From the NCBI RefSeq assembly GCF_009931435.1, contig NZ_CP043414.1: DNA of 64,000 bases, one strand, 5' to 3'. The stretch is from Escherichia coli (lineage in GTDB: Bacteria; Pseudomonadota; Gammaproteobacteria; Enterobacterales; Enterobacteriaceae). The stretch's first letter is position 1. Every line of letters starts with the position of its first letter. The position numbers and the translations under genes were made by a program. The notes below the pieces were generated by a model, which ran no database searches, was not told the DNA's origin, and worked only from the letters and a program-made list of their open reading frames with translations. Of the stretch, positions 11,783 to 21,628 are shown piece by piece.

Positions 11783-12967
11783 ATGAAAAAAGTTATTTTA
11801 TCTTTGGCTCTGGGCACGTTTGGTTTGGGAATGGCCGAATTTGGCATTATGGGCGTGCTTACGGAGCTGGCACATAACGTAGGTATTTCGATTCCTGCCG
11901 CCGGACATATGATCTCGTATTATGCGCTGGGGGTGGTGGTCGGTGCACCAATCATCGCACTCTTTTCCAGCCGCTACTCGCTCAAACATATCTTGTTGTT
12001 TCTGGTGGCGTTGTGCGTCATTGGCAACGCCATGTTCACGCTCTCTTCGTCTTACCTGATGCTCGCCATTGGTCGGCTGGTTTCCGGCTTTCCGCATGGC
12101 GCTTTTTTTGGCGTCGGGGCGATTGTGTTATCGAAAATTATCAAACCCGGCAAAGTCACCGCCGCCGTGGCGGGGATGGTTTCGGGGATGACAGTTGCCA
12201 ATTTGCTGGGCATTCCGCTGGGGACGTATTTAAGTCAGGAGTTTAGCTGGCGTTACACCTTTTTATTGATCTCTGTGTTTAATATCGCGGTGATGGCATC
12301 GGTCTATTTTTGGGTGCCGGATATTCGCGACGAGGCGAAAGGAAAGCTGCGCGAACAATTTCACTTTTTGCGCAGCCCGGCCCCGTGGTTAATTTTCGCT
12401 GCCACGATGTTTGGCAACGCGGGTGTATTTGCCTGGTTCAGCTACGTAAAGCCATACATGATGTTTATTTCCGGTTTTTCGGAAACGGCGATGACCTTTA
12501 TTATGATGTTAGTTGGGCTGGGGATGGTGTTGGGGAATGTGCTAAGTGGCCGGATTTCAGGACGTTATTCACCACTACGCATTGCGGCAGTGACTGATTT
12601 CATTATTGTGCTGGCATTGCTGATGCTCTTTTTCTTCGGCGGCATGAAAACAACGTCGCTTATTTTTGCTTTTATTTGTTGCGCGGGATTATTTGCCCTC
12701 TCTGCACCGCTGCAAATATTGTTACTGCAAAATGCCAAAGGTGGAGAATTATTAGGTGCCGCAGGTGGGCAAATAGCGTTTAACCTCGGTAGCGCCGTCG
12801 GCGCATATTGCGGAGGTATGATGCTGACGCTGGGGCTGACTTATAATTACGTGGCGCTGCCTGCCGCCCTGCTTTCGTTTGCTGCGATGTCGTCGTTGCT
12901 GCTGTATGGTCGCTATAAGCGCCAGCAAGCGGCGGATAGTCCGGTGCTGGCGAAACCAGTGGGGTAG
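11783..12967 (+). CDS. araJ: MFS transporter AraJ
   Basis: Track ORF 11699..12967; the internal ATG at 11783 gives MKKVILSLALGTFGLGMAEFGIMGVL..., a 12-TM MFS protein; position downstream of sbcC. Confidence 0.85.
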   Translation: MKKVILSLALGTFGLGMAEFGIMGVLTELAHNVGISIPAAGHMISYYALGVVVGAPIIALFSSRYSLKHILLFLVALCVIGNAMFTLSSSYLMLAIGRLVSGFPHGAFFGVGAIVLSKIIKPGKVTAAVAGMVSGMTVANLLGIPLGTYLSQEFSWRYTFLLISVFNIAVMASVYFWVPDIRDEAKGKLREQFHFLRSPAPWLIFAATMFGNAGVFAWFSYVKPYMMFISGFSETAMTFIMMLVGLGMVLGNVLSGRISGRYSPLRIAAVTDFIIVLALLMLFFFGGMKTTSLIFAFICCAGLFALSAPLQILLLQNAKGGELLGAAGGQIAFNLGSAVGAYCGGMMLTLGLTYNYVALPAALLSFAAMSSLLLYGRYKRQQAADSPVLAKPVG

Positions 12968-12984
12968 ATTGCAGCCACGGTGCA

Positions 12985-13095
12985 CGTTGCTTATTGCCGG
13001 ATGCGGCGTGAACACCTTATCCGGCCTACGGCTGCTCATTTTGTAGGCCTGATAAGACGCGGCAAGCGTCGCATCAGGCATGATGCACCAATTGC
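12985..13095. repeat. REP/BIME palindromic elements
   Basis: GCCGGATGCGGCGTGAACACCTTATCCGGCCTAC and GCCTGATAAGACGCGGCAAGCGTCGCATCAGGC type imperfect palindromes between araJ and mak. Confidence 0.8.
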
Positions 13096-13104
13096 CTGGT
13101 TTTT

Positions 13105-14013
13105 TTACTCTTGTGGCCATAACCACGCAGCGCCGCGTACGCCGCTGGAATCACCATGTTTCGCCTTACGCACCGGCGTTTCACATTCGCCGCCGAAGAC
13201 AAATTGTTTAATCAACTGCGGAACCGTTTGATATAAACGATCTACATTGCTCATCCCGCCCCCCAACACAATCACATCCGGATCGAGAATATTCACTACG
13301 TGTGCCAGCGATTTTGCCAGCCGCAGCTCGTAGCGACGCAATGCCAGTTCCGCTACCGGATCGCTTTCTTCTACCAAGCGGATAATTTCACTGCCTTTCA
13401 GCGCATGTCCGCTCAAACGATGATAATCCGTCGCGAATCCCGTGCCCGAAATAAAGGTTTCAATACAACCTTGTTTACCGCAATAACAAGGGACTTCCTC
13501 GCGATAACGCAGTTCATCTTCGTCCATCCACGGTAGCGGATTGTGTCCCCACTCGCCTGCCGTGCCATTGCCGCCGATATGCGCTCGACCATTGAACGCT
13601 ACGCCCGCGCCGCATCCCGTGCCGATAATCACGGCAAATACCGTCTGCGCTCCCGCTGCTGCGCCATCTACCGCTTCCGAGACCGCCAGACAGTTGGCGT
13701 CATTTGCCAACCGCACTTCCCGTTGCAACCGCGCGCTTAAATCTTTATCAAATGGCTGACCGTTAAGCCAGGTTGAATTGGCATTTTTCACCACGCCAGT
13801 GTAAGGCGAAATCGAGCCTGGAATGCCCATGCCTACCGTTCCGCGCTGCCCTGTCGCCTGCTCCGCCATATCAACCAACGTGGCGATCGTTTCGATGGTC
13901 TGATGGTAATCATCACGCGGTGTGGGCAGACGATGACGATACAACTGCTCCCCTGCATCGCCCAGTGCAATCACTTCAGTTTTAGTGCCGCCTAAATCGA
14001 TACCTATACGCAC
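13105..14013 (-). CDS. mak: Fructokinase / manno(fructo)kinase Mak (ROK family)
   Basis: GTG at 14013 gives [14 protein letters not shown]..., ROK sugar kinase with zinc motif [10 protein letters not shown]; the track ORF extends further upstream to 14151. Confidence 0.85.
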
Positions 14014-14137
14014 GGTACTCTCCTTATTTTTTTCAATATCAATAGCGTAGAGACGGACAACCGGATTGGCAATGCAAGGCCGCCGACAATTCGTTATCAT
14101 GCCCGCTAAATTTAACGACAAGGCCGTGGAAATTATC

Positions 14138-15049
14138 ATGCTGTGGTTCAAAAATTTAATGGTTTACCGTCTTAGCCGCGAGATTTCGCTGCGTGCAGAA
14201 GAGATGGAAAAACAGCTAGCCTCGATGGCATTTACCCCATGCGGCAGCCAGGACATGGCGAAGATGGGCTGGGTTCCTCCGATGGGATCGCACAGCGATG
14301 CGTTAACGCACGTTGCCAATGGTCAAATTGTTATCTGCGCGCGCAAAGAAGAAAAAATCCTCCCGTCTCCGGTGATTAAACAGGCGCTGGAAGCAAAAAT
14401 CGCCAAGCTGGAAGCGGAACAGGCGCGCAAGCTGAAGAAAACCGAAAAAGATTCGCTGAAAGATGAAGTGCTGCACTCTCTTCTGCCGCGCGCTTTCAGC
14501 CGTTTCAGCCAAACCATGATGTGGATCGATACGGTAAACGGTTTGATTATGGTGGACTGCGCCAGTGCCAAAAAAGCAGAAGATACGCTGGCATTACTGC
14601 GTAAAAGCCTGGGGTCGTTACCGGTTGTACCATTGAGCATGGAAAACCCGATTGAACTGACGCTGACCGAATGGGTACGCTCTGGTAGTGCGGCACAAGG
14701 CTTCCAGCTGCTTGATGAAGCCGAACTGAAATCGTTGCTGGAAGATGGCGGCGTGATCCGCGCGAAGAAACAAGATTTGACCAGCGAAGAAATCACCAAC
14801 CACATTGAAGCAGGAAAAGTGGTGACTAAACTGGCGCTCGACTGGCAGCAGCGCATTCAGTTTGTGATGTGCGACGATGGTTCACTCAAGCGTCTGAAGT
14901 TCTGCGACGAGCTGCGCGATCAAAACGAAGATATCGACCGTGAAGATTTTGCCCAACGTTTTGATGCCGATTTCATCCTGATGACCGGTGAACTGGCAGC
15001 ATTAATCCAAAACCTGATCGAAGGATTAGGTGGCGAAGCACAACGTTAA
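14138..15049 (+). CDS. rdgC: Recombination-associated protein RdgC
   Basis: ATG at 14138 gives [16 protein letters not shown]..., 303 aa; divergent from mak as in E. coli. Confidence 0.9.
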
Positions 15050-15074
15050 TTGCTGATTTGCCTTTAATGCCGGA

Positions 15075-15115
15075 TGCGACGCCTGCGGCGTCTTATCCGG
15101 CGTACGAATCCACAC
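15075..15115. repeat. REP element
   Basis: CCGGATGCGACGCCTGCGGCGTCTTATCCGG palindrome immediately 3' of rdgC. Confidence 0.7.
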
Positions 15116-15126
15116 CAGGCATATAA

Positions 15127-15582
15127 TCATTCGCTACGGCGGGCAATAATTTTTAGCGCAGCAATATTATGCGTTTTACGCCGTAACTGATCCAACCGTC
15201 TCATCCCTATTCGCCTGTCAGCGGCACGCAGAATATTCACTAACCCCCATTTATCGCTGGTACATTGTTTCGTTAACAGCTCCGCTTTTGGGGTATCAAT
15301 ATATTCACGCAATAAATCAGAAATTGAACAAATATCCGTCAGATAAGGATACCAGCAAGTTTCACCATGAAAATTACGCACTCCACCATTGCCTGCCATA
15401 AAGTCTTTTGGGTAATCCCAGATCACGTCTTTATCCAACGTGATCCAATAACGCGGTAAATCGGAGCTTCCACCATTTTGGCTGCGCATGGGATAACGGG
15501 TACAGTGAATTTGCAGGTTGATCGTTGGCGTCAGTAAGTCATAAATCTCCCTCTGTAACTTGCTCCAGGGGCGTTGTGTCAT
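15127..15582 (-). CDS. Hypothetical 151-aa cytoplasmic protein, second gene of an accessory two-gene operon
   Basis: ORF MTQRPWSKLQREIYDLLTPTINLQIHCTRYPMRSQNGG...; its ATG (15582) overlaps the upstream gene's TGA (ATGA, 15579-15582), implying translational coupling; local composition is AT-rich. No family recognised. Confidence 0.6.
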   Translation of the reverse strand: MTQRPWSKLQREIYDLLTPTINLQIHCTRYPMRSQNGGSSDLPRYWITLDKDVIWDYPKDFMAGNGGVRNFHGETCWYPYLTDICSISDLLREYIDTPKAELLTKQCTSDKWGLVNILRAADRRIGMRRLDQLRRKTHNIAALKIIARRSE

Positions 15583-17858
15583 TGTTTTTCCTCAAGCCGG
15601 TTACGCGCTTCACTGCGAATTTGCCGCGTTGCCCCGGTTTTCACTAAATGACGTAACTGCGAAAGATCGGGCTGATCAACAAATAAGATTAATGATGCAT
15701 CCTCCTTTAACCACGCCGTTTTCACATCGGCAGCCAACTGTGGATTATTAATAGCCAGCGCCCGATCCTGTGACTCAGTCAATGTCGTTAACAAAGAGGC
15801 TGGGGTATGTACATTGCGCAACGCCGTCTGCCGCAAATGATCATTGTGACTTTTCAGCAATCCGCACCACCATTCATCATCTGATTTATCTTTTATCGTA
15901 TCCAGCTCCGCAAAAATATCGCTTTCCTCATGATTCCAGCGGTGTAATCCCCTTTCACTTTGTCTACGGGTGCTATTTTTCATACTGACAACAGACAACG
16001 CCCAGTCGGAGTTAAAACGATACTGTTGATCGAGTTTGTTGATAATTCCGGAGGGTAAATCTTCATTATCAAATAGCTGGTTTCGCATCCGATAGCGGTA
16101 TTCAGCAGGTAAATAAACCAGTAAATCGATGGCATTATTAAACATCTCTTCGTCAATAATACCATTATCAATCAGCGCCAGCTGTACTTCGTAGGCTTGC
16201 TCTTGATCTTCTTGCCGTTTACTCATCATTAATTTTAAGGTGTGTTGCCATAATTGTTTCTTATACTCCAGAGGTAATAATTTATCGCGTGCCAGCTCAT
16301 ACCAGATGCTGGGAATGTCATGCTGATTCAGTAGATAACTAATCACTTCCTTCGAGGTCAGATAACGCATGCCGTCACGTAAGTTGTGCACATCTTCTTT
16401 TGCCAAAGTCAGTTGACGCGACTCCGGCAAAGCGACCAATAACGCCTTCACGATATTTTTATTTTCTTTATTATCCAGATACATTTGTTCTGCGATACGT
16501 TCAACATCCTCTGTCCTCAGGGTCGCTGACAGTTGGGTGATTTTTAGTTCAGTAAGCGTCCGGGCTAATGCTTGACGAACTTTCAGCGATTTATCTTTAC
16601 TCAACAACACCGCTTGTTGTGCGGTTAAATCGGTTCCGGTAATTCTTTCGCGTAACTCCGGAGCTTCGCTATTTATCAATTCATCGACCACTGCAGTTGG
16701 AACCAGCCAGGCGTAATCGTAATGGCTGATTAATGTCTTGCGCACACTGAGAAAAGGGCTTTGACTTAACGACACAACAATATCAGGAGAAAGATTATCC
16801 TGTCTGGCCTGCTCCAGCTGTACGCTCTCGACGGGTACAGACATTAATTTTTTATTCACTTCGGCGGATATATTGCTGTTTTTAACCAGTCCTCTGGCAA
16901 CAGCTTCATCTTTAATTATTTCGTCGGTAAGCAAATGCATCTGTTGAGCGGGCCAGGACTGCGCCATCGATTCACGCGTCTGGTCATCGGGGTGCTGTAA
17001 CAGTTGCAGCATAACGGCGGTTGACAAACGCTCTATATGAGTCAGAAAACGTGCCACCAGTGGATCTTCATGCTTTATTTTATCCGCAAGGAAATTATCG
17101 AGTTTCCCCGTTTCAATCCATTTTAATTTCTCATTAATTTCAGGAGCAGCTTTATCTCGAAAAAGAGGTAAACCCTGAACGATATTGTCTACGACGCTAT
17201 CATAGTCAGGATACGCATTGGAAATATTATCGGTTTCGATTTCACTATGATCATAAAGATTAGGCGTCACCAGTGAATAAACTTTTTGAATATTCTCGTC
17301 CCAGTTATATTCTTCACCGCTTTCATCTTCATTGATATAAAACTCAGCTTTAATGACCTCAAATTGCGTTGCTTTATCGGAAACAATAATGCCTCGCGCG
17401 CTAATTCCTTTCATCACTTCAAAGTTGTGATCATTATAATCAGCATAAACCAAACCTTTCGCTGTCATCTGCCCTTTGACATACGCGAAATCATGATTAA
17501 TAAAGTTGTCGACAATAACATTACCTAATACAATCAGATGACCATTACCTGACAGATAATCATCATAATCGCCGGAAATCGTTAAATTACCGTTCACCAC
17601 CAATTTATTTTGATTGCTGAAGTTAGCGGGTAATGATAGGTCACCATTATGATAATACCAACGGATATTATCTTTCAGCATATAAGCAGCTTCCATACTA
17701 TCGTTGGTTGCCGCTTTAACCACGTTGCGCTCATCTGCCGTCATAAGATGAAAGTCAGAGGTGATAAGGTCCTCGCTACTGATCCACTCTGTGGCACATG
17801 CATTGCCAGTCATAAAAAACACGACCATACAGATGACCAATATATTAATTCTATTCAT
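15579..17858 (-). CDS. Hypothetical large secreted protein (about 759 aa) with Sec signal peptide and helical-repeat C-terminal region
   Basis: Track ORF 15579..17867 starts at a GTG; the ATG at 17858 gives MNRINILVICMVVFFMTGNACA|TEW (hydrophobic core, AxA cleavage site). N-terminal region is beta-rich with Asn/Gly repeats, the C-terminal two thirds is helical with repeated L-x-x-[LA] units. Low GC (roughly 32-38% in sampled 60-bp stretches). Start choice uncertain by 3 codons. Confidence 0.65.
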   Translation of the reverse strand: MNRINILVICMVVFFMTGNACATEWISSEDLITSDFHLMTADERNVVKAATNDSMEAAYMLKDNIRWYYHNGDLSLPANFSNQNKLVVNGNLTISGDYDDYLSGNGHLIVLGNVIVDNFINHDFAYVKGQMTAKGLVYADYNDHNFEVMKGISARGIIVSDKATQFEVIKAEFYINEDESGEEYNWDENIQKVYSLVTPNLYDHSEIETDNISNAYPDYDSVVDNIVQGLPLFRDKAAPEINEKLKWIETGKLDNFLADKIKHEDPLVARFLTHIERLSTAVMLQLLQHPDDQTRESMAQSWPAQQMHLLTDEIIKDEAVARGLVKNSNISAEVNKKLMSVPVESVQLEQARQDNLSPDIVVSLSQSPFLSVRKTLISHYDYAWLVPTAVVDELINSEAPELRERITGTDLTAQQAVLLSKDKSLKVRQALARTLTELKITQLSATLRTEDVERIAEQMYLDNKENKNIVKALLVALPESRQLTLAKEDVHNLRDGMRYLTSKEVISYLLNQHDIPSIWYELARDKLLPLEYKKQLWQHTLKLMMSKRQEDQEQAYEVQLALIDNGIIDEEMFNNAIDLLVYLPAEYRYRMRNQLFDNEDLPSGIINKLDQQYRFNSDWALSVVSMKNSTRRQSERGLHRWNHEESDIFAELDTIKDKSDDEWWCGLLKSHNDHLRQTALRNVHTPASLLTTLTESQDRALAINNPQLAADVKTAWLKEDASLILFVDQPDLSQLRHLVKTGATRQIRSEARNRLEEKQ

Positions 17859-18001
17859 AATCTTCACTGATATTTATATCAACCTTGATGAATTATGAAT
17901 ATATCGGAAATCGAAAAAATCGCAGCAAAGGAAATATTATTATGGGTTAAAGAGAAGATATTTCAGAAAAATGCCCTCCCGTTCATGGGGAAGGCGAGGA
18001 A

Positions 18002-18286
18002 TTACAGATAGCGGCACAGATAAGAGGTGGGTTCGGCAACTTGCAGATGAAACTCGCTGTGACCGGGAACATTAAACACCGAACCGGCTTCATACACTTG
18101 CCAGTCGGTCGCGTCAGGCAGTAACACATTCAGCGCACCACTGATTACCGTCATCTCTTCAGGCTCAGCGGTGCTGAAGGTGTATTCGCCTTCAACCATA
18201 ACACCCACGCTGGCGCGACCAGTGCTGCTGCTGGAAAAGCCGATCGATTTCACTTTGCCGGAAAAGTACTCATTACTTTGAAGCAT
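18002..18286 (-). CDS. ppnP: Pyrimidine/purine nucleoside phosphorylase PpnP (YaiE)
   Basis: 94 aa, [37 protein letters not shown]...; synteny aroM-ppnP. Confidence 0.9.
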
Positions 18287-18357
18287 AAACTGGCCCTGTC
18301 TGGTAGTTGAACATCTACTTCACTATAGGGGCCAGAGGCGCTGGCTGTCACGCAAAA

Positions 18358-19035
18358 TTACACCAGTAATTCCGCAGCTAGCCTTGCAATCAATACGTTA
18401 GAGAGCAAGACAGGAACATCGAGCTGTTTTTGCAGTAAATCGCGATGACGCTGGTTAAATCCCAAACAATCCAGCATGATGACATCTGCGCCTTTTGCCA
18501 GTAATTCTTTCCCGGCATCAATGATTTTTTGTTCCGAATCATGAATGGGGTTACCCAATGAAAATACTGGCGGTTTCTGCAAAATTTGCCATTTTTGCGC
18601 CTGAACGGTCAGTAGCTCTTCAACCGGTACGATAACCCCCACCTGATGATCTTCAACAATAGATGAAACCAGCGGTGGCAATATTCGCGACGGCTCAAGA
18701 AAGATCGTATTACGCGCGGTCATACTCCTAATGTTTGCCGTACTCATTAATATAATGACGTCGTAACCCTGATTATCGAGCACTTCAACCACACCTTGCA
18801 GGTCTCGCTCCACTTTGCGACGCGAAACATGGGCCAGCTGGTTGTCATTTAATAATGTGAGAATTGTGTCTTCGCCTGCTTCTGGCGCGTACTCCGCCAT
18901 CACTTCTTCGCGGCTTAACTTCCCCAGCAGGCTATGATGGGAAATATTATCTTCGTCAATGTATTCTGTCAGGAGCGGCAAAACTTCCTGCATAGGTACA
19001 ATGCCGATGGTCAGGATCGCCAACGACGCACTCAT
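18358..19035 (-). CDS. aroM: AroM protein
   Basis: 225 aa, [26 protein letters not shown]...; downstream of aroL-yaiA. Confidence 0.9.
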
Positions 19036-19292
19036 TGTTCTTCCACCTTACTTTTATTTCGTCGTTAATTACCGGGCAAGCGCTAAGCACCACTGCCGAC
19101 ACTTACCTGTGCTACAAATGACAAAAAGCGTAGCAGCAGACCTGCACGGCATAATGTAAAGATTCCAAATGATTCCAGTAATGGATTGTTATTGTTTAAT
19201 ATTCTAATTATTTGAAAAACATGAATTGTGAAAAATGTGACGCAGATCCCTTGTGGTGGCACTCAGAATCCCTTCCGAGCAGTCTGATGCGG

Positions 19293-19493
<201 letters not shown>

Positions 19494-19533
19494 TTATTTC
19501 ACGGGATGAACGTTAAGTATAGGCGCTCGAAAA

Positions 19534-20058
19534 TCAACAATTGCTCGTCTGTGCCAGGGCGCTGCGAATTTCAGAAATCACCTGGCTGGGTTCGTTTGTT
19601 GCGTCGATGATAATATGCGCAACTTCGCGATATAGCGCATCGCGTTCTTCCAGCACTTCCTGAACTTCTTCGCTCAGCGGTTTCCCCGTTAAGGTTGGCC
19701 GTAAATCTTCTTCCGGTGCAGCTTGCAGTCGGTTAACCAGGACTGATACTGGCGCACACAAATAAACCACGATCCCGTTATTTTGCATAAAGTGACGATT
19801 AAATTCCGTCAGGATAATGCCGCCGCCCGTGGCGATAACGGTGGATGGCGCAGTTACCGCTTCCAACGCCGCCGTTTCTCTGGCGCGGAATCCCGCCCAC
19901 TCTTCCCTTTCGACGATCTCCGCGACCGTCATATTGAGCTGTGATTGCAACCACTGGTCGGTATCGACAAATCGACGGTTAAGCGAATCGGCAAGGGCCA
20001 TTCCGACCGTTGTTTTACCACAGCCCCGAGGCCCGATCAGAAAAAGAGGTTGTGTCAT
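19534..20058 (-). CDS. aroL: Shikimate kinase II AroL
   Basis: 174 aa, [26 protein letters not shown]... (P-loop). Confidence 0.95.
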
Positions 20059-20125
20059 CGTGGGTTTTCCCCAATAGGTCGCAATGCGGCGAAAGCCGGT
20101 GTCATGAGAATAGCGATCATACCAT

Positions 20126-20141
20126 CAAACTAGTACAATTT
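20126..20141. promoter_or_regulatory. Candidate TrpR operator in aroL promoter
   Basis: CAAACTAGTACAATTT contains the ACTAGT core typical of Trp repressor operators, about 70 bp upstream of the aroL start. Confidence 0.45.
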
Positions 20142-20221
20142 CGATTGTAAAGAAAAAATTCCACTTAAAGTGAAAATTTTAATACATCCCTTACTATACC
20201 AATAAATTTTCAAGAATGAAG

Positions 20222-20239
20222 TGTAAATAATAAATTACA
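20222..20239. promoter_or_regulatory. Candidate TyrR box in aroL upstream region
   Basis: TGTAAATAATAAATTACA fits the TGTAAA-N6-TTTACA consensus; a second weaker box TGTAAAGAAAAAATTCCA lies at about 20146-20163. aroL is a known TyrR/TrpR target. Confidence 0.55.
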
Positions 20240-20240
20240 T

Positions 20241-20699
20241 TCAGCCACGACTACGTTGCACTTCCAGCCACCACTTCTCCAGCTCCGCGGCAAAGGCCTG
20301 GCGGTCACGTTGTGAAAGGCTATCTGGTCCCCCGGTCTGGATCCCACTGGCGCGTAAGGTATCCATAAAATCGCGCATCGTCAGGCGCTCACGAATGGTC
20401 GCTGGTGTGTAACGTTCGCCGCGTGGATTAAGCGCCGCAGCGCCTTTCTCGATGACTTCAGCAGCCAAAGGAATATCTGCGGTGATCACCAAATCGCCAG
20501 CTTCACACTGCCGGACAATTTCGTTATCGGCAACGTCGAAACCTGCCGCGACGCGCAGCGTTCGAATAAATCGCGAAGGCGGTACGCGTAAACTCTGGTT
20601 TGCTACCAGTACCAGCGGCATCTGCATACGTTCAGCCGCGCGATACAAAATCTCTTTAATTACATTGGGACACGCGTCGGCATCCACCCAAATTGTCAT
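20241..20699 (-). CDS. yaiI: UPF0178 protein YaiI
   Basis: Internal ATG at 20699 gives [35 protein letters not shown]... (152 aa); the track ORF extends to 20819. Divergent from proC. Confidence 0.85.
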
Positions 20700-20818
20700 A
20701 AAGTCATCCTTTGTTGGGTAATTCTCTATTGTGTCGCGCTTTTGCCTTCCGGCATAGTTCTGTTTATGCTTCTGCCAGCGATTATCAAAACAATGAATTT
20801 CACGGCAGGAGTGAGGCA

Positions 20819-21628
20819 ATGGAAAAGAAAATCGGTTTTATTGGCTGCGGCAATATGGGAAAAGCCATTCTCGGCGGTCTGATTGCCAGCGGTCAGGTGC
20901 TTCCAGGGCAAATCTGGGTATATACCCCCTCCCCGGATAAAGTCGCCGCCCTGCATGACCAGTTCGGCATCAACGCCGCAGAATCGGCGCAAGAAGTGGC
21001 GCAAATCGCCGACATCATTTTCGCCGCCGTTAAACCAGGCATCATGATTAAAGTGCTTAGCGAAATCACCTCCAGCCTGAATAAAGACTCTCTGGTCGTT
21101 TCTATTGCTGCGGGTGTCACGCTCGACCAGCTTGCCCGCGCGCTGGGCCATGACCGGAAAATTATCCGCGCCATGCCGAACACTCCCGCACTGGTTAATG
21201 CCGGGATGACCTCCGTAACGCCAAACGCGCTGGTAACCCCAGAAGATACCGCTGATGTGCTGAATATTTTCCGCTGCTTTGGCGAAGCGGAAGTAATTGC
21301 CGAGCCGATGATCCACCCGGTGGTCGGTGTGAGCGGTTCTTCGCCAGCCTACGTCTTTATGTTTATCGAGGCGATGGCCGACGCCGCCGTGCTGGGCGGG
21401 ATGCCACGCGCCCAGGCGTATAAATTTGCCGCTCAGGCGGTAATGGGTTCCGCAAAAATGGTGCTGGAAACGGGAGAACATCCGGGGGCACTGAAAGATA
21501 TGGTCTGCTCACCGGGAGGCACCACCATTGAGGCGGTACGCGTACTGGAAGAGAAAGGCTTCCGTGCCGCAGTGATCGAAGCGATGACGAAGTGTATGGA
21601 AAAATCAGAAAAACTCAGCAAATCCTGA
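20819..21628 (+). CDS. proC: Pyrroline-5-carboxylate reductase ProC
   Basis: ATG at 20819 gives [25 protein letters not shown]... (269 aa), NAD(P)-binding GxGxxG. Confidence 0.95.

Follow-up and report, generated by a model that had tools for sequence, protein, structure and literature searches.

Between rdgC and ppnP of Escherichia coli, in the stretch of 64,000 nucleotides (nt) of contig NZ_CP043414.1 that was analysed here (the window), lie two co-oriented minus-strand genes: a large gene for a DUF2773 protein of 759 amino acids (aa) and a small gene for a 151-aa protein of the SF0329 family, together called the cassette below. The reading we favour, to which we would give about an even chance of being right, is that the cassette is an intact, old two-gene operon of Escherichia in which an orphan immunity-type gene (SF0329) became joined by chance to the gene of a periplasmic scaffold protein. 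We describe the anatomy of the locus, the folds and distribution of the two proteins, the order in which their genes decay and the purifying selection on them, and we consider an immunity function of SF0329, which the company of its relatives would suggest.

The cassette between rdgC and ppnP

Both open reading frames and their ATGA overlap at 15579-15582 are present as a first-pass annotation of the window had described them, the start of the large gene being the ATG at 17858, and the repetitive extragenic palindromic (REP) element that it had placed beside the cassette was found at about 15069-15101. The features of the locus are listed below.

15127..15582, minus strand: small gene, 151 aa, no signal peptide, "SF0329 family protein" in RefSeq (PF25753, NF049912)
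15579..17858, minus strand: large gene, 759 aa, "DUF2773 domain-containing protein" in RefSeq (open reading frame; RefSeq annotation of strain R32_14_1F)
15579..15582, minus strand: 4-nt ATGA overlap between the stop of the large gene and the start of the small gene (from the sequence; likewise annotated in O157:H7)
15589..15593, minus strand: GAGGA Shine-Dalgarno sequence of the small gene, 6 nt 5' of its ATG and within the end of the large gene (from the sequence)
About 15069..15101, no strand assigned: REP-type palindrome separating the rdgC stop from the 3' end of the small gene, GCCGGATGCGACGC-CTGC-GGCGTCTTATCCGGC
17859..18001, minus strand: intergenic region between ppnP and the cassette, including a stretch homologous to the K-12 ykiA promoter (96.7% identity to K-12)
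17995-17973: ppnP terminator, within this intergenic region and upstream of the large gene
17966-17939: promoter-like site from a consensus scan, such sites being no commoner here than in shuffled sequence

The open reading frame of the large gene spans 15579..17867 on the minus strand, and a GTG at 17867 would add three residues; both RefSeq and the homologues place the start at the ATG at 17858, which gives 759 aa. The nearest genome is that of E. coli R32_14_1F, a goat isolate, with 99.7% identity over the 3 kb. The REP palindrome is kept in K-12, which would assign it to the rdgC side of the junction.

The spacer between rdgC and ppnP measures 2952 nt in the window strain versus 646 nt in K-12; the former agrees with the 2.95 kb given at first pass, whereas the roughly 0.9 kb given there for K-12 was too long. 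The low GC content claimed for the cassette also held in part. Both genes lie below their flanks, at 42.1% (42.2% at third codon positions, GC3) for the large gene and 45.0% (GC3 44.7%) for the small gene, against 51-54% (GC3 53-57%) for mak, rdgC, ppnP and aroL and a window mean of 51.4%, but the proposed 32-38% was too extreme, the lowest values being 36-37%, found only in 300-nt windows across 17100-17700. Among the flanking genes, aroM on the ppnP side is lower than the others (46.8%, GC3 49.1%). The low GC would point to a foreign origin of the cassette before Escherichia diversified.

The cassette occupies the same chromosomal site as ykiA and ykiD of K-12 and shares their sequence, including the upstream promoter region (96.7% identical), but both genes are truncated in K-12 and complete in the window strain. 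In K-12, the ykiA promoter is activated by BglJ-RcsB (PMC3950696), and YkiD, which has the same start as the small gene, is translated, as detected by epitope tagging (PMC6001520). A ykiA-type promoter may drive the full operon in the window strain.

The large protein, a predicted exported solenoid

An AlphaFold2 model of the large protein, built on an alignment of 39 relatives (pLDDT 90.9, pTM 0.79), consists of a signal helix, a beta-helix and an alpha-solenoid, which map to the gene as follows.

17793..17858, minus strand: Sec signal peptide, aa 1-22, MNRINILVICMVVFFMTGNACA followed after the cleavage site by TEW (n-region, h-region and A-C-A; conserved in the family)
17331..17657, minus strand: right-handed beta-helix, bactofilin-like or adhesin-like, aa ~68-176
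15582..17141, minus strand: LRV/HEAT-type alpha-solenoid, aa ~240-759
15582..15824, minus strand: Pfam DUF2773 (PF10971) match, aa 679-759, E 5.6e-37 to an 81-residue model

The DUF2773 match comprises the last LRV-like repeats of the solenoid, that is, the last 11% of the large protein, and it is this portion that K-12 ykiA has kept. Searched exhaustively, 1.84 billion cluster representatives yielded 167 relatives of the large protein, many of them 750-800 aa long and 20-35% identical over their full length, and both the architecture and the signal peptide are maintained down to 20-30% identity. The signal peptide proposed at first pass is supported by this conservation: a hydrophobic N-terminal stretch followed by A-x-A and a conserved E/D-W is found in most of the 39 full-length homologues. 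The large protein is predicted on these grounds to be exported by the Sec pathway, and export is probably a trait of the family, because most members share these N-terminal elements. A lipoprotein was considered and rejected, as the residues before the Cys read T-G-N-A and form no lipobox.

The fold match of the solenoid to LRV/HEAT structures is clear. In profile searches, the query itself gave only HEAT at E 9.9, below Pfam thresholds, and LRV_2 and LRV were matched by 6 and 4 of the 39 homologues, respectively. The large protein differs from known LRV/HEAT proteins (PF01816, LRV_2 PF25591; 1lrv) in that its solenoid is predicted to be exported and is fused to a beta-helix. It resembles the beta-helices of bactofilins and adhesins (2n3d, 6ria), of tapirin (6n2b) and of autotransporter passengers (4om9, 3ak5) in fold only: unlike bactofilins, it has no Pfam bactofilin match, is predicted to be exported rather than cytoplasmic and gives no sign of polymerisation, and unlike autotransporters, it carries no autotransporter barrel.

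Pfam and fold searches found no toxin, enzyme or secretion-system domain in the large protein, and sequence searches of PDB, PADLOC and PHROGs returned no informative match for either the large or the small protein. As the first-pass annotation had supposed, neither protein could be placed in a functionally characterised family, the only matches being DUF2773 and SF0329, for neither of which a function has been described. The large protein is most likely a non-enzymatic binding or scaffold protein of the periplasm.

Independent families and loss within Escherichia

The first-pass annotation had tentatively interpreted the cassette as an effector or toxin with a chaperone or immunity protein. 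In its strict form, this would be an obligate pair: a secreted effector or toxin (the large protein) and the cognate immunity protein or export chaperone (the small protein). Such a pair would fit the ATGA overlap with its internal Shine-Dalgarno sequence and the matching dN/dS of both genes. It would also fit the immunity genes that accompany relatives of the small protein and the conservation of gene content and order, seen in E. coli lineages and in a relative with an 84%-identical small protein. However, neither a toxin nor an enzyme domain was found in the large protein, whose C-terminus consists of LRV repeats conserved throughout the family, the opposite of the variable toxin module that characterises polymorphic toxins. 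The products are also predicted to reside in different compartments, the large protein being exported and the small protein lacking a signal peptide. Further, large-family homologues occur that have no SF0329 gene downstream: at loci whose large proteins are 49%, 35%, 29% and 25% identical to the query, a six-frame check found no SF0329 gene within 5-6 kb.

The converse holds for SF0329, whose loci outside Escherichia (about 80 other species) have no large-family neighbour. Presence and absence of both families at these loci were rechecked by tblastn. When the 670 proteins encoded around SF0329 genes were grouped into 436 clusters, no partner was conserved beyond single clades. Conservation of the pair is confined to the rdgC-ppnP site in Escherichia and its close relatives, and at the two loci with the 84%-identical small protein (L014 and L015) the genes are separated by a 2-nt gap instead of sharing the ATGA overlap. 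Finally, the small gene often outlives the large one: about 477 E. coli genomes, as well as E. albertii and Escherichia sp. MOD1-EC7003, have kept it intact after losing the large gene. We conclude that the large and small proteins are not an effector/immunity pair, an obligate partnership being very unlikely; what survives of the earlier interpretation is that the small protein would be of the immunity type, judged by the company of its relatives.

The proposal that the cassette is accessory in E. coli was borne out by a census of 5426 complete genomes. All but 2 of them match some of the region, the whole cassette (at least 80% of the 3 kb) is present in 443, O157:H7 included, and a full-length small gene is present in 920; the roughly 477 genomes mentioned above keep the small gene without an intact large gene. 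In blastn comparisons, K-12 retains three pieces of the region (15002-15188, 15553-15920 and 17860-18100), which implies two internal deletions.

15921..17859, no strand assigned: segment absent from K-12 and from Escherichia sp. MOD1-EC7003, most of the large gene including its start (blastn junction 15920/17860)
15189..15552, no strand assigned: segment absent from K-12; the small gene has thereby lost 124 codons in frame, leaving the 27-aa YkiD

K-12 thus lacks 1939 nt of the large gene, and its ykiA pseudogene corresponds to the last 113 codons of that gene. The first-pass annotation was right in suspecting such a fragment, and K-12 also keeps a remnant of the small gene: the 27 residues of YkiD (MTQRPWSKLQR followed by KTHNIAALKIIARRSE) are the first 11 and the last 16 residues of the 151-aa protein, joined in frame.

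The junction 15920/17860 is identical in K-12 (L002) and MOD1-EC7003 (L018), and the second deletion, in the small gene, is found only in K-12; the common large-gene junction either goes back to one old deletion or was spread by recombination. In MOD1-EC7003 the small gene is intact despite the deletion in the large gene. E. albertii likewise carries a degraded remnant of the C-terminus of the large gene followed by an intact small gene (87% identity), and in E. coli 268.2 the large gene is fully gone and the small gene is frameshifted.

Intact copies or remnants thus occur at the same site in E. albertii and other Escherichia. Against O157:H7, dS is 0.17-0.22 for the cassette and 0.18-0.20 for mak and rdgC, and because these values are equal, the cassette is old at its site and has been inherited together with its flanks. 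A recent date for the horizontal acquisition proposed at first pass is contradicted by both observations, and the variability of the cassette reflects loss rather than recent gain. With dN/dS at 0.18 for each cassette gene and 0.008-0.03 for the flanks, the cassette is under purifying but relaxed selection while it is being lost, the large gene tending to go first.

Such a pattern raises the question of whether the genes do anything at present. If both were horizontally acquired leftovers drifting towards deletion, without a current role even where intact, one would expect several things that are seen, namely loss of the genes from most E. coli by at least two independent deletions, the existence of frameshifted copies, and a constraint that is lower than on the flanking genes by a factor of about 6-20. 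However, a dN/dS of 0.18 over a dS of about 0.2 shows that purifying selection still acts on both genes. SF0329, moreover, shows strong conservation across phyla, and in the large family architecture and signal peptide persist at low identity, as described above. We regard functionless relics as highly improbable.

The window strain itself seems to belong to a divergent lineage of E. coli, because its flanking core genes (12000-21000) are 94-98% identical to those of O157:H7 and K-12 (mak 95.5%, rdgC 96.4%, dS ~0.2). Over the same interval, it is 99.8% identical to the goat isolate R32_14_1F.

SF0329 and its genomic company

The small protein is a clear member of SF0329, scoring 91.2 bits against the NF049912 cut-off of 60 (aa 6-148) and matching PF25753 at E 5.4e-22. 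Its relatives number more than 550 and are 55-65% identical, few of them coming from named sources (Prevotellaceae, Bradymonadia, Paenibacillus, Zoogloeaceae and Leminorella), and in a survey with one genome per species, SF0329 occurred in 86 of about 100,000 species genomes at 45-67% identity. The carriers span Proteobacteria, Bacillota, Bacteroidota, Spirochaetia and others; they include Escherichia, Leminorella, Photobacterium, Sutterellaceae, Ruminococcus and other Bacillota, Bacteroidales, Leptospira and many metagenome-assembled genomes (MAGs) labelled as Campylobacter. SF0329 genes are usually lower in GC than the loci that host them. Carriage by phages or plasmids was considered and rejected, as IMG/VR gave no match and plasmid records only two, one of which is a 1.2-Mb replicon.

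About 26 residues of SF0329, mostly polar, are invariant, including K8, Q10, R44, D56, D110, D122, R124 and N139, and the motif WGLxNILRAADRRIG is strongly conserved. The fold of the small protein is predicted with confidence and has no solved structural relative. A Foldseek search of AFDB50 with the model returned only family members and DUF4304 proteins; two of the latter (A0A962PLC4 and A0A916M7E1) matched at E 1.9e-11 with a TM of ~0.75 and 31% identity. DUF4304, likewise a family without a function, resembles SF0329 by predicted fold and is also present among the scanned neighbours of SF0329, and the two probably form one superfamily. In the literature library searched, no paper deals with SF0329 as a protein family, nor with DUF4304.

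In the metagenomic loci L009 and L010, SF0329, Imm10 and Macro are among the 13-19 small genes, at 35-37% GC, that lie in one orientation behind a tyrosine recombinase, and in locus L100 the order is DUF4240-SF0329-Imm33-Imm9-AbiEi/AbiEii-Imm25-Ank-SMI1_KNR4. A Pfam census named up to 20 families per set of neighbours and counted matches per set rather than per protein. Among the families listed for 60 neighbours in seven Bacteroidales arrays were Imm51 (2), Imm43, Imm17, SUKH_6 (2), SMI1_KNR4, DUF4240 (2), DUF5071 (2) and DUF1963; among those listed for 148 mixed neighbours, none recurred more than twice. Outside such arrays, SF0329 stands alone as an insert. For its neighbours at the Campylobacter-labelled and Leminorella loci, NCBIfam gave housekeeping matches or none, and no SF0329 paralogues were found near SF0329 genes.

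These arrays show the hallmarks of the heterogeneous polyimmunity loci described by Zhang et al. 2012 (PMC3482391), SF0329 being recurrently present in them beside Imm and SUKH families. They also recall the recombinase-associated rAID-1 clusters, in which orphan immunity genes protect against toxins of the type VI secretion system (Ross et al., bioRxiv 10.1101/471110). Shared with both are co-oriented arrays of small, low-GC genes (Imm9, Imm10, Imm17, Imm25, Imm33, Imm43, Imm51, SUKH, Ank and DUF4240), some of them headed by a recombinase, and a patchy distribution across phyla, as expected of transferred immunity cassettes. The likeness of L009 and L010 to rAID-1 clusters is one of arrangement. 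By contrast, the E. coli copy lies outside any array, has no recombinase nearby and has the large solenoid gene as its sole neighbour; with two genes at 42-45% GC, the E. coli locus is not an rAID-1 cluster. SF0329 further differs from the families of these systems in having no known cognate toxin and in being more conserved than is usual for immunity proteins.

A cognate toxin directly upstream of SF0329 was looked for and rejected: at all 10 non-Escherichia loci with a gene of at least 200 aa no more than 60 nt upstream, that gene is a housekeeping gene (e.g., isocitrate dehydrogenase, an aminotransferase, a tRNA synthetase, pyruvate kinase or ribosomal protein L17) and has no toxin domain. 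SF0329 thus does not lie directly downstream of a recognisable toxin gene in E. coli or at these 10 loci.

Several loci have further neighbours of SF0329. At 22 loci from MAGs named as uncultured Campylobacter (L040, L047, L049, L052-L054 and about 16 more), a common pair of unannotated genes of 227 and 177 aa lies directly upstream of SF0329 and downstream of rseP- and yggS-like genes; the two have no NCBIfam match, and the GC content of about 46% is odd for Campylobacter. In Mediterranea sp. An20 (L062:8713-13908), a 1731-aa gene, the last of 12 genes in a co-oriented array, follows SF0329 at a distance of 250 nt. In Leminorella grimontii (L003 and L020), SF0329 ends a run of small genes after tolB-pal-cpoB that includes an HTH_35 gene and one for a WGR+DUF4240 protein, and DUF4240 also adjoins SF0329 in L100-L102. 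The WGR-family gene molR of K-12 responds to BglJ-RcsB, like the ykiA promoter.

Short LRV proteins appear to be members of immunity-type arrays as well, because a 138-aa gene in a recombinase-headed array (L009:8522-8938) matches the LRV part of the large-family profile (E 6e-8). This match would fit a second view of the E. coli cassette, as a two-gene mini polyimmunity locus in which the solenoid neutralises a periplasm-acting effector and the small protein a cytoplasm-acting one. HEAT-repeat proteins are listed among the immunity proteins of polymorphic toxin systems, and polyimmunity loci of two or three genes have been described (PMC3482391); the two E. coli genes are, moreover, both AT-rich and under similar constraint. 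However, 759 aa with a beta-helix is far above the typical size of an immunity protein, and none of the five large-family loci examined outside rdgC-ppnP lies in an immunity array or beside a toxin. We consider a double immunity locus quite unlikely.

Another possibility is that SF0329 is a small enzyme or repair factor that reverses damage, possibly through NAD/ADP-ribose chemistry on nucleic acids, rather than a stoichiometric toxin binder. Its very high conservation across phyla, its invariant residues and the WGLxNILRAADRRIG motif would suit an enzyme, and Macro-domain genes occur in the same arrays and ADP-ribosylglycohydrolase genes among the neighbours; both kinds of gene are, however, common in such arrays anyway. 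One MAG of an uncultured member of the Bacilli (L085:2162-3199, CAKPLX010000079.1) contains a 345-aa open reading frame in which SF0329 (aa 3-158) is followed by a C-terminal Tpt1/KptA RNA 2'-phosphotransferase, recognisable by Pfam PTS_2-RNA (E 4e-44) and by RANQGHS and HGT motifs. This single fusion hints at NAD/ADP-ribose chemistry on nucleic acids, but it could be a frameshift or assembly artefact. Together with the Macro and ADP-ribosylglycohydrolase neighbours, it is a weak lead to the function of SF0329, and a repair enzyme in place of a toxin binder seems to us quite improbable.

There is also a bolder reading, which we consider unlikely. SF0329, whose members in Escherichia, Bacteroides, Ruminococcus and Leptospira share 50-65% identity, would be a structurally unprecedented protective factor. 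Its target would be either the conserved core of a widespread interbacterial toxin, possibly one using NAD/ADP-ribose chemistry on nucleic acids, or the damage that this toxin does. Because it would act on damage or on a conserved core, the immunity would be broad rather than specific to a toxin allele, and YkiD would be an inactivated stump.

According to the reading that we prefer, an old Escherichia operon joined by chance, the first gene would encode a Sec-exported solenoid, with a beta-helix followed by a long LRV/HEAT alpha-solenoid, and the second a cytoplasmic SF0329 protein, a highly conserved single-gene cassette that moves between phyla and, in Bacteroidales of the gut, is found in recombinase-linked arrays of orphan immunity genes. 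The latter would protect the cell from a cytoplasm-acting toxin of competing bacteria, either by binding the toxin or by reversing its damage. The two genes would have been adjoined once, in the ancestor of Escherichia, and would since have been linked by translation and by one promoter downstream of ppnP while being otherwise functionally independent, most E. coli having subsequently lost one or both by deletion.

Several points weigh against this reading. The immunity role would follow from guilt by association, and the upstream genes at the 10 non-Escherichia loci yielded no cognate toxin. An identity of 50-65% across phyla with about 26 invariant residues is unusually high for an immunity protein and would fit an enzyme equally well. 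Polyimmunity arrays also include genes other than immunity genes, such as the AbiE modules in L100, and many SF0329 copies outside the Bacteroidales are solo inserts with uninformative neighbours. Within E. coli, some copies of the small gene are frameshifted, so that its retention is not universal, and a genuine functional link between the two genes would likewise account for the ATGA coupling and for their equal dN/dS.

Both families had already been catalogued and the K-12 remnants named. Beyond the annotations and papers found, our analysis adds the derivation of ykiA and ykiD by two deletions, the fold of the large protein, the absence of a solved fold relative for SF0329, the independence of the two families and the presence of SF0329 in polyimmunity arrays. 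Apart from SF0329, the locus consists of ordinary accessory genes in decay, and the small gene is a candidate orphan immunity gene rather than a new kind of system. The full cassette is carried by about 8% of complete E. coli genomes, O157:H7 among them, and the full-length small gene by about 17%. If the reading is true, it would give an origin for the BglJ-RcsB-activated pseudogene ykiA and the translated 27-aa YkiD of K-12, would separate two families that annotation and gene order had paired, and would make SF0329 an easily tested candidate for a family of orphan immunity genes. Competition in the gut would be better understood with the help of a new-fold immunity or repair factor of such broad conservation.

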